Shown piece by piece: positions 4,254 to 6,399 of a stretch of DNA of 64,000 bases; position 1 is the stretch's first letter, and every line of letters starts with the position of its first letter. A program made the position numbers and the translations under genes. The notes beneath the pieces are model-generated. The model was not told where the DNA came from, searched no databases, and saw only the letters and a program-made list of their open reading frames with translations. Source of the stretch: Escherichia phage 121Q; the sequence record NC_025447.1; one strand, 5' to 3'.

Positions 4254-4529
4254 ATGAATTATAAAGTTCTACAATATACATACAGTGTTTTGTTTGATTT
4301 ACATCACAATGGAAGATATCTCAATACAATACGAGAAAACACATTCACTCATACTATCTGGATTAATCACTTAATAATGATACGTGAATATTTTGTTAAT
4401 AGTGAGATAATCATTCGTGGTAAAAAACATAAGATAGAACAAGTTAATAGTTTTGGTGGTAAATTAGTACTATCATTTATAGATAGTAATACTAATGAAA
4501 GATATAGTATAGATTTGGTGGACATATGA
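4254..4529 (+). CDS. small protein, member 1 of a tandem paralog array
   Basis: N-terminus MNYKVLQYTYSVLFDL resembles the next five ORFs. Confidence 0.5.
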   Translation: MNYKVLQYTYSVLFDLHHNGRYLNTIRENTFTHTIWINHLIMIREYFVNSEIIIRGKKHKIEQVNSFGGKLVLSFIDSNTNERYSIDLVDI

Positions 4530-4792
4530 ATTATAAAGATTTCCTACTAACATACAAGATTATTCGAGATTTAGCACACGACAATGATAGCCCTAGTCTA
4601 GAAGACACATGCACTGAAATGATTCATACGATTCGTGGTAAGATTAAAAAAAAATTCAGTACTGTTATTATTGGTGATGACCATGCAGAATTTTCTGATA
4701 TAATCATTAGACGTGATGGTAAAGTTGAGGTTCAGTACTACACTGATTTTGGATTTACCAGTATTCCGTTGGAGATATTCCCTTGGGATTAA
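4526..4792 (+). CDS. small protein, paralog array member 2
   Basis: MNYKDFLLTYKIIRDL; overlapping stop/start. Confidence 0.5.
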   Translation: MNYKDFLLTYKIIRDLAHDNDSPSLEDTCTEMIHTIRGKIKKKFSTVIIGDDHAEFSDIIIRRDGKVEVQYYTDFGFTSIPLEIFPWD

Positions 4793-5094
4793 ATTTAAAT
4801 GATATACAATTCACTTATAAGATCCTATATGATTTGTATGATGTATACCTTGTTAGTAACAAAATAGGTTCACATAACCCATACAAAGAACAACCATTTA
4901 TTGATTTATATATTGAGTACTTAGATTCAGTAGGTGAATATATAAAAAAGAATTACAGTACTTTTATCGACGGAAATGATATATTCGAGTTCTCTGGAGT
5001 TAAATCATACAATGGGATTATCCATGTTGAATTTCTTGAAATAACCGATAGGGGATTTATCGAGATTAAAGTTGTGAAGTTGGTGAATTTATAA
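4783..5094 (+). CDS. small protein, paralog array member 3 (TTG start)
   Basis: NLNDIQFTYKILYDLY; GGAG 7 nt upstream of TTG. Confidence 0.45.
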   Translation: MGLNLNDIQFTYKILYDLYDVYLVSNKIGSHNPYKEQPFIDLYIEYLDSVGEYIKKNYSTFIDGNDIFEFSGVKSYNGIIHVEFLEITDRGFIEIKVVKLVNL

Positions 5095-5104
5095 GAGGTT
5101 ACAT

Positions 5105-5416
5105 ATGTTATTAAATGATATACAATTCACATACAAATTTTTGTATATCCAATACGCTACGGTTGATGCTGGAGAATATCTCTACGGTGAAATCTATCGT
5201 TCGGTATGGATAAAGTTTTTGGATGAATTACATGAATATTACCATGATTTGTGTATAGTTCGTGATAATAAAATATACAAATTCCGCGATATTGTTAGTC
5301 ATAGCGGTAAGCTACGATTGGAATTAAGTACTGATAGTGATGTTGATTGGATTGGTGTAAATTTACTGGAGTTGGAGAATGAAAAACAACTTAAAGGAAA
5401 TACAAGTATTTTATAA
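5105..5416 (+). CDS. small protein, paralog array member 4
   Basis: LLNDIQFTYKFLYIQY; RBS AAGAGG. Confidence 0.5.
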   Translation: MLLNDIQFTYKFLYIQYATVDAGEYLYGEIYRSVWIKFLDELHEYYHDLCIVRDNKIYKFRDIVSHSGKLRLELSTDSDVDWIGVNLLELENEKQLKGNTSIL

Positions 5417-5663
5417 ATTCTTATACTTGTCATATGTAAAAGATGAGTACTATGAAAGTGTGTATTATTTTTTATGGCAACATTACCGTACTATAGTAAG
5501 AGATTTATATATAGGAAAATCTATCATATCCAATGGTGAAAAATGTATATGTACTGATGTTGTTAGTTTTAATGGTTCTTTAACACTGTGTTTCAGATGC
5601 GATAATAATAGTGGGTCATTTTCATTAAACGTATATCAGTTAGAAGGAATAAATTTTGAATAA
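5379..5663 (+). CDS. small protein, paralog array member 5
   Basis: NLKEIQVFYKFLYLSY; RBS GGAG. Confidence 0.5.
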   Translation: MKNNLKEIQVFYKFLYLSYVKDEYYESVYYFLWQHYRTIVRDLYIGKSIISNGEKCICTDVVSFNGSLTLCFRCDNNSGSFSLNVYQLEGINFE

Positions 5664-5856
5664 ATGTCCATATTGTAACAGTACTCAATTAGCTCGTTTC
5701 CGTTTAGATTCAGACTGGGCGACTGGTGCTGGTGATTTCTTCCCTATCAATGATGATGCAGAATACACCGAAGAACAGCACAAAGATTTTGATAAATCAT
5801 GGCGACCTGACATTGAGTGCATTTATTGCCTTAATTGTGAGCGTGTTCATGACTAA
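5656..5856 (+). CDS. small zinc-ribbon protein
   Basis: CPYC...CLNC pairs of cysteines. Confidence 0.45.
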   Translation: MNKCPYCNSTQLARFRLDSDWATGAGDFFPINDDAEYTEEQHKDFDKSWRPDIECIYCLNCERVHD

Positions 5857-6112
5857 AGCTGAACTAATAGTTCATACATATAAAATGATATCAAGTACTG
5901 AGTTATCATATAGTGCAGATAATCCAGTACTGGATTATTTTGTTGAATTATTGAAAGAGCATTATATTGGTAAATCACTGATTCTTAATAATATTAATTT
6001 CACGGTAAAGGATGTAGCACCTGGAAAAAACGTACTAATAGTATGTGTTACTTCATCTGATAACCCAGTATACCCAATATCAATAATTTTTGAGATATTA
6101 GGAGATTTATGA
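5849..6112 (+). CDS. small protein related to the paralog array (start refined to ATG overlapping the previous stop)
   Basis: ATGACTAA stop/start overlap; shares HYIGKS motif with 5379 ORF. Confidence 0.4.
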   Translation: MTKAELIVHTYKMISSTELSYSADNPVLDYFVELLKEHYIGKSLILNNINFTVKDVAPGKNVLIVCVTSSDNPVYPISIIFEILGDL

Positions 6113-6399
6113 ATATCATTTTAATGCAGAAAACATATGCTATATTGGTGAAAGATTATTCCATTACTTTCGATTCACAAGAAAGTGCTCTACATAACCT
6201 ATACAAAAACGTAACACAAGAATACAGAAATATGTTTTCTGACTTAGTAGTAGGAAGGTATTTCAGTACTAGAAAATACCCAAAACTTCAAATAGTTGAT
6301 GTTTCTTTTTATTTCAATGGTCATATTACTATTCATAGTTTAGACCAAGATTCAACAACGTACTTAAACTTTTCATTTGATGAGGTAACATTTTTATGA
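6109..6399 (+). CDS. small protein, paralog array member
   Basis: MNIILMQKTYAILVKDY. Confidence 0.45.
   Translation: MNIILMQKTYAILVKDYSITFDSQESALHNLYKNVTQEYRNMFSDLVVGRYFSTRKYPKLQIVDVSFYFNGHITIHSLDQDSTTYLNFSFDEVTFL

Follow-up and report, generated by a model that had tools for sequence, protein, structure and literature searches.

Positions 4,254 to 6,399 of a 64,000-nucleotide stretch of Escherichia phage 121Q (sequence record NC_025447.1; the whole stretch is referred to as the window) carry a row of small genes on the + strand, and the locus raises the question of whether these genes form one diversified family and what such a family would do for the phage. A preliminary description, made from the sequence alone, had proposed at least six tandem paralogous genes. 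We found seven, encoding proteins of 87–103 amino acids (aa); the open reading frames (ORFs) starting at 4254, 4526, 4783, 5105 and 5379 are strong members, and those at 5849 and 6109 are weaker but significant ones. Together, the seven window ORFs form a true multigene family that is lineage-restricted and encodes soluble proteins of about 90–105 aa. Pairwise BLASTP alignments among the first five ORFs were full-length, covering 73–98 aa at 23–31% identity, with the second and third members (4526 and 4783) sharing 31% identity over 97 aa. Leave-one-out hidden Markov model (HMM) profiles were scored against the 557 stop-to-stop ORFs of the window, and for each sequence we counted how many of 1000 composition-preserving shuffles reached the real score. 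Only 0–1 of the 1000 shuffles did so for each of the seven members. Furthermore, an iterated profile run over 1443 ORFs from the window and related loci converged on exactly these seven window ORFs and recruited none of 807 minus-strand decoys, and independent PHROG profiles cross-hit between members. The shuffles, the decoy-free recruitment and the PHROG cross-hits thus establish that the similarity is not compositional, a concern that the preliminary description had itself raised.

The array starts with member 1 (4254..4529, 91 aa; leave-one-out E 1.3e-8, 0/1000 shuffles), which matches phrog_32291 and cross-hits phrog_21004 (1.4e-5). It is followed by member 2 (4526..4792, 88 aa; E 0.009, 1/1000 shuffles), member 3 with a TTG start (4783..5094, 103 aa; E 1e-8; phrog_21004 at 5.8e-52), member 4 (5105..5416, 103 aa; E 4e-16), and member 5 (5379..5663, 94 aa; E 3e-9), which overlaps member 4 by 38 nt. 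Beyond a zinc-ribbon gene, which is not a member, lie member 6 (5849..6112, 87 aa; E 0.011) and member 7 (6109..6399, 96 aa; E 0.003), each with 0/1000 shuffles. These coordinates agree with the coding sequence (CDS) calls of phage G17. The genes had been described as joined by overlapping stop and start codons, and most junctions indeed are, with ATGA overlaps at 4526, 6109 and 6396 and other overlaps of 8–38 nt, but a 10-nt gap separates the genes at 5094/5105. In the PHROG collection, phrog_21004, phrog_32291, phrog_35943, phrog_33961 and phrog_28826, all of 'unknown function', represent the same proteins, and the window members match their own PHROG end to end with E values of 1e-44 to 1e-62. 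The exception is 5379, for which no dedicated PHROG exists and which cross-hits only phrog_21004 (1.6e-4) and phrog_32291 (7.7e-4). Whereas the PHROGs split these proteins into at least five unlinked groups, our analysis joins them into one family with a common predicted fold.

Directly 3' of member 7, the 58-aa ORF at 6396..6572 (+ strand) encodes a small hydrophobic membrane-type protein (grand average of hydropathy 0.92) and is not a member; its position is kept in ph0011, vB_Ec-M-J and Turkey5, and is taken by a 68-aa membrane ORF in RaK2 and Muenster. The subsequent ORF (6559..6837, + strand, 92 aa) is a candidate remote eighth member, with a leave-one-out E of 0.13 and 4/1000 shuffles reaching its score, and is linked to members 1 and 2 through RaK2 and Muenster intermediates that match both. 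The ORFs at 7635 and 7961 gave no significant score (leave-one-out E 1.6 and 3.3, with 22 and 44 of 1000 shuffles reaching it).

We read the conservation from a weighted alignment of 31 diverse members. The N-terminal positions M1, N2, Q7, T9, Y10, K11 and L13 are conserved, in agreement with the shared signature recognized in the preliminary description. The same description had called the C-termini divergent, but the alignment and the AlphaFold model proved the homology to be full-length. Thus, the second helix retains a hydrophobic ladder (L34, W35, Y38, L39 and I42), the junction residue G48 is conserved in the context [YF]-[IV]-G-[KR], and a hairpin D62-[VI]63-x-S65-[YF]66-x-G68-x-[LI]70 follows. 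All seven window ORFs are recruited by the full-length profile, which includes the helix motif x-Q-x-T-Y-K-x-L and the hairpin motif D-[VI]-x-S-[YF]-x-G-x-[LI]. An AlphaFold2 prediction for member 5105, based on a 22-sequence alignment, reached a predicted local distance difference test score (pLDDT) of 80.6 and a predicted template modelling score (pTM) of 0.71, and placed helices at residues 3–22 and 25–46 and strands at 50–53, 56–66, 69–75 and 82–86. The predicted fold would therefore consist of a helical hairpin at the N-terminus that packs against an antiparallel sheet of four strands. Since both conservation and model extend past the N-terminus, the whole protein is one homologous domain. 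The proteins are mostly mildly acidic, with isoelectric points of 4.7–5.8 and one at 8.1, and are not hydrophobic.

By sequence comparison, the window belongs to an Asteriusvirus jumbo coliphage of the PBECO4/121Q group. Over bases 4000–8500, identity is 99.4% with Escherichia phage vB_EcoM_phAPEC6, 96–99% with PBECO4, G17, slurp01 and others, and 83–85% with a second group of Asteriusvirus genomes; the CDSs under this match are all labelled 'hypothetical protein' in the related records. The G+C content across the window is 31–36%, essentially all long ORFs of the first 20 kb lie on the + strand, and Rfam and tRNA scans of the window yielded no matches. The array lies within a unidirectional block of small genes, in a variable slot whose flanks are ordered alike in the whole RaK2-like group, with a Dam methylase, a cytidylyltransferase, two small genes and an approximately 200-aa acidic-tail protein on the 5' side, and a 243-aa protein, RnlA, PseT, a Ser/Thr phosphatase, Pth2 and a DNA ligase on the 3' side. 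The neighbourhood thus encodes the known counter-defence-type enzymes RnlA, PseT/Pnk, Pth2 and Dam, among which RnlA and PseT are tRNA-repair genes; in T4, these two counter host anticodon nucleases. The conserved acidic-tail protein lies directly 5' of the array (3593–4207), ends in a poly-Asp/Glu C-terminal tail, and has homologues in Munch, XaC1 and EJP2, with similar ORFs of about 200 aa at the same position in RaK2 and in the records L002/L003.

Only in Asteriusvirus, in Alcyoneusvirus (RaK2 and Muenster) and in an uncultured lineage (L003/L023) are the family and the zinc ribbon found in the slot, which is filled with unrelated genes in GAP32, BF, Munch, XaC1 and EJP2. The number of copies 5' of the zinc ribbon is five in the window, ph0011 and vB_Ec-M-J, three in Turkey5, one in RaK2/Muenster, where only ORF453 is detectable, and one in the metagenomic L003/L023, which have at least four further family members 3' of the ribbon. 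Other genes come and go in the same region. The gap at 6838–6895 that precedes the 243-aa gene is a hot spot of insertion, with a 494-aa ORF in ph0011 (L004, 5406–6890) and a 307-aa annotated endonuclease in vB_Ec-M-J (L005, 6058–6981). In RaK2 (ORF457; L006, 6076–6693) and Muenster (L022, 3721–4338), the slot also contains an HD-domain protein that the window lacks; the Muenster protein is annotated as a SpoT-like (p)ppGpp hydrolase, and the annotations of GAP32_074 and RaK2 ORF457 point to similarity with one and the same Pseudomonas protein. The syntenic arm of Xanthomonas phage XaC1 (L010, 8725–11443) carries a different tandem family of five paralogues of about 180 aa, and in RaK2-like phages, tandem families thus seem to be found generally in this arm of the genome.

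The rate of evolution was estimated from the Nei-Gojobori ratio (ω) of nonsynonymous (dN) to synonymous (dS) substitutions against ph0011 and vB_Ec-M-J, in which some dS values exceeded 1 and were saturated. The array genes showed 55–75% aa identity, dN of 0.15–0.35 and ω of 0.11–0.62, while the five genes on the 5' side, the zinc ribbon, the 243-aa gene, RnlA and PseT showed 86–99% identity, dN of 0.01–0.09 and ω of 0.02–0.13. The array members evolve 3–10 times faster than their flanks, yet under purifying selection. This comparison, proposed along with the preliminary description, bore out the faster evolution but not positive diversifying selection, which is not demonstrated since the gene-wide ω is below 1. 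The array is also a mosaic: vB_Ec-M-J is 98–100% identical to the window at 5105 and 5379 and only 56–57% at 4254 and 6109, and the allele in the 5849 slot of ph0011 and vB_Ec-M-J can barely be aligned and has only the first eight residues in common. The array thus arose by old tandem duplications, as judged from paralogues that are 15–30% identical, and since then it has gained and lost copies by lineage, with divergent alleles swapped by recombination between genomes.

Two kinds of repeats were noted within the array. A 26-nt direct repeat (TTAAATGATATACAATTCACTTATAA; copies 92% and 77%) occurs at 4795–4820, 5111–5136 and 5391–5416, at the 5' end of each of three array genes in a row, and a 54-nt repeat, 70% identical, covers the ribosome-binding site and start of array genes 1 and 2; either gene conversion or merely the conserved N-terminal motif could be the cause. 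In the Salmonella phages SD-1_S14, SD-6_S16, SD-2_S15 and SD-15_S21 (L016–L019; Asteriusvirus records of 310–326 kb), there are many deletions of 60–400 bp inside and outside the array, which create chimeric ORFs such as P0029. We did not use them as cases of unequal crossing-over, as they are out of register, are found beyond the array too and vary between sister isolates; either true genome reduction or faulty assembly could explain them.

What would such a family do? The most likely reading, to which we give about an even chance, is that the array encodes accessory binding proteins for host takeover or counter-defence; it is supported by the variability of the slot, the rapid evolution of the proteins, the shuffling of alleles, and the neighbouring tRNA-repair and other host-interaction enzymes. 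The genes are tightly packed around the conserved zinc-ribbon gene and probably translationally coupled. In the mechanism that we propose, they would be expressed by read-through of host-type (sigma-70-like) transcription units to yield non-structural, individually dispensable accessory factors. Each paralogue would act as a small binding module, in which the conserved core and a polar patch (N2, Q7, T9, Y10, K11, D62, S65 and G68) may maintain the fold and a common contact, and the fast-changing surfaces may fit each paralogue to a different host target or target variant. The preliminary description had arrived at the same assignment; the diversified tandem paralogues, the hypervariable slot, the evolution faster than the flanks and the counter-defence-type neighbours speak for it, but no support came from homology to characterised proteins. 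Several points indeed weigh against it. No homologue of known function was found, nor were expression, interaction or phenotype data in the literature searched. With a gene-wide ω below 1, an arms race is not demonstrated, and the fast evolution could reflect relaxed constraint. The conserved polar residues could instead serve a phage-internal partner. Finally, there is no canonical promoter 5' of the array, and a strong intrinsic terminator (4213..4237, + strand; a 9-bp stem with five GC pairs, then a T-run), annotated in G17 as well, ends 17 nt before the first gene. The array is therefore probably read through from the 5' units.

Among the alternatives, the one that survives best involves the zinc ribbon. 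The preliminary description had pointed to an embedded zinc-ribbon ORF, and we confirmed it as a 66-aa protein with a TTG start (5656..5856, + strand) and the pattern CxxC...CxxC. Inside the fast-evolving array, this gene retains 97–98% aa identity with its counterparts in ph0011 and vB_Ec-M-J (ω 0.03–0.06), and its Cys pairs are invariant. It is present in 43 records, which are exactly Asteriusvirus and Alcyoneusvirus, and a search of IMG/VR with the zinc-ribbon alignment returned only RaK2 itself. Other annotators have described the protein as TFIIS-like, with HHpred probabilities of 93–96% to 1TFI/1QYP and an acidic L-D-S-D loop after the first CxxC; our HMMER searches against PDB sequences and Pfam, without a significant match, did not confirm this label. 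The family could thus have a phage-internal role together with the ribbon, for example as interchangeable adaptor or regulatory subunits in transcription or another phage process. Family and ribbon co-occur, both are absent from the syntenic slot of the five phages with unrelated genes, family members flank the ribbon in every lineage examined, and the conserved polar patch is common to all paralogues. However, the ribbon is nearly invariant while the members fall to 55% identity and vary in number, a pattern unexpected for obligate partners, and the TFIIS assignment comes from the HHpred note of other annotators, with none obtained from HMMER against PDB sequences. We regard this role as unlikely, though it is the main rival.

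Relaxed constraint, as mentioned above, leads to a second alternative, in which the array copies are decaying duplicates with no current function. The ω values above those of the flanks, the variable copy number and the one replaced slot would suit decay. However, the seven array ORFs are intact in the 31 related records, out of 34, in which at least 80% of bases 4000–8500 is present, their ω (0.11–0.62) remains below 1, specific polar residues are kept across paralogues that are only 15–30% identical, and AlphaFold predicts a confident fold. We therefore judge decay to be improbable.

The extended −10 element TGATATAAT occurs in 10 copies in the window, all on the + strand, against 3.0 expected (at 762, 6847, 14617, 16867, 22321, 31633 and 55458, and also at 2739, 4696 and 47767), and the phage promoter consensus is probably the sigma-70-like GGGACA-N14-15-TGATATAAT. 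A putative promoter of the form GGGACA-N16-TATAAT with the extended −10 element (6828..6855, + strand) marks the 3' end of the array, and its position is conserved in six genomes, G17, ph0011, vB_Ec-M-J, Turkey5, RaK2 and Muenster. A second intrinsic terminator lies 3' of ORF 7635 (7923–7942). The copy at 4696, inside ORF 4526, was rejected as an internal promoter; it has no GGGACA box and is not conserved in ph0011 and vB_Ec-M-J.

An N-terminal signature common to tandem, otherwise divergent small genes also recalls the hyperplastic internal protein (IP) loci of T-even phages, which show a similar pattern, and the array copies could likewise be capsid-targeted internal proteins that share an N-terminal targeting peptide and are injected with the DNA. 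The virion proteome of phAPEC6, however, comprises 62 proteins by mass spectrometry (PMC7247149), and none of gp379c–gp390c, which cover the array locus, is among them (PMC7247149); this absence argues against T4-IP-like injected proteins. In addition, the N-terminal motif is modelled within helix 1 of a folded domain (pLDDT 86), the homology is full-length, and no conserved L/I-x-E cleavage motif follows the signature. This explanation is largely refuted, and we consider it very improbable.

Searches for relatives outside the locus gave a consistently narrow distribution. No member reached a gathering cut-off in Pfam (best 11–18 bits against cut-offs of 21–29), NCBIfam matched no family member (the zinc-ribbon ORF scored only 13 bits against a cut-off of 100), the PADLOC scan gave no above-threshold match for family members, and the family HMM found no match among PDB sequences. 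The predicted fold has no full-length PDB analogue, and Foldseek against BFVD matched only uncharacterised small proteins of UB, 121Q, slurp01 and RaK2, including, for member 6109, a 96-aa vB_Eco_slurp01 protein that is not assigned to a slot (template modelling score 0.70–0.75). Across Pfam, PADLOC, NCBIfam, PDB and the structure searches, no homology to characterised proteins was thus detected. A word-indexed search of 5.8 billion proteins returned 37 proteins, all orthologues of the window members, and an exhaustive HMMER search of 1.84 billion representatives yielded 22 matches (clusters), consisting of proteins of 52–105 aa plus three weak ones in repeat proteins, which are regarded as spurious. 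The source-traced hits all came from Asteriusvirus, RaK2-like phages or uncultured relatives, and two of the distant ones belong to uncultured relatives with the same synteny. The publications on phAPEC6, fEgEco12, Sharanji and PA5oct contain neither a description of the family nor an Asteriusvirus transcriptome. A degenerate PD-(D/E)XK nuclease-like domain, suggested by weak matches of 4526 to PADLOC REase_II (E 7.8e-4), of 5849 to Pfam DpnI (E 0.099) and of 4526 to DUF4928 (E 0.14), was rejected as scarcely credible, since these matches are far under the curated cut-offs and each confined to single members, and the alignment has no conserved D...(D/E)xK catalytic triad, with D62 at only 60% and strand 3 without a conserved Lys.

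The preliminary description had further proposed a second, loose family with a KY[IL]G motif among the small ORFs between 9.5 and 17.4 kb. A pair of paralogues indeed exists, the KYLG ORF at 13194..13454 (+ strand, 86 aa) and the KYIG ORF at 16137..16388 (+ strand, 83 aa); the profile of the latter recruited the former at E<1e-3 among 1461 ORFs with no decoys, and these two are the only window ORFs with an exact KY[IL]G (0.09 expected). The looser motif [YL][IL]G at residues 18–60 is also enriched, with 12 of the 57 small + strand ORFs carrying it and shuffles giving 3.0±1.6. A separate wider family was not borne out, as the hhalign links of ORFs 11448, 11709, 13451, 15590 and 17140 to 16137 are weak (10–32% probability), and the loose motif can be seen as well in array member 5379 and in ORF 7635, whose membership is not demonstrated. 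The AlphaFold2 model of 16137 (pLDDT 76) has one helix (2–27) followed by five strands, and weakly resembles small helix-plus-SH3-like-barrel phage proteins in BFVD (DUF1653-like and MotB-like, E>=0.014), whereas the array fold combines a helical hairpin with four strands; 16137 and array members have in common the [YL][IL]G motif at the junction of helix and sheet. The array and 16137 models share BFVD matches, which are weak (Foldseek E 0.006–0.04, for example RaK2 H6X4J9 at 0.006 and 0.035) and therefore not enough to claim common ancestry. From the models, the architecture of 16137 appears related to the array fold but different, and a common superfamily is possible. A bolder conjecture, which we hold to be doubtful, would unite the array, the KY[IL]G pair, about a dozen ORFs of 80–110 aa between 5 and 17.5 kb, and their RaK2 counterparts in one superfamily with a new helix(-hairpin)-plus-sheet scaffold, a diversifiable binder platform that, possibly with the TFIIS-like ribbon, would neutralise host defence or transcription factors.

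Elsewhere in the window, further paralogue sets were observed, namely three tandem ORFs of about 170–190 aa at 46051–47657 (E 5e-13 for the first two), and two paralogues of about 900 aa at 39927–45989 (E 2e-59), with a C-terminal module also present in the 210-aa ORF at 42608–43243.

In the RaK2/121Q-group jumbo phages, most of the genome consists of unannotated small genes, and seven genes that had been split among unrelated 'hypothetical' groups are now joined as one fast-evolving family, with a confident predicted fold that has no solved analogue. The hypervariable slot, bounded by conserved genes, offers a compact target of about 2.6 kb for host-takeover and anti-defence screens.

In comparison with known systems, the accessory host-takeover reading has a close parallel in the small early anti-defence and host-takeover proteins of the T4 type, such as Dmd, Arn and IPI*. 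The array products are similar to these in size (60–100 aa), are likewise mostly acidic and non-structural, are encoded near tRNA-repair enzymes, and are hypervariable between related phages; unlike them, they have no detectable sequence or structural similarity to these proteins, and the T4 IPs are virion proteins whereas the array products are not. A second parallel is offered by the 'genomic accordion' gene families of poxviruses. Jumbo-phage genomes are also described as expanding by tandem gene duplication (Hua et al., as cited in PMC7247149). The array shares with both of these tandem paralogues, lineage-specific copy number, a variable genome arm and fast evolution, but its duplications are old (15–30% identity) and not recent. 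On the evidence available, the array is a typical accessory multigene family of large phages, and not a new kind of system.

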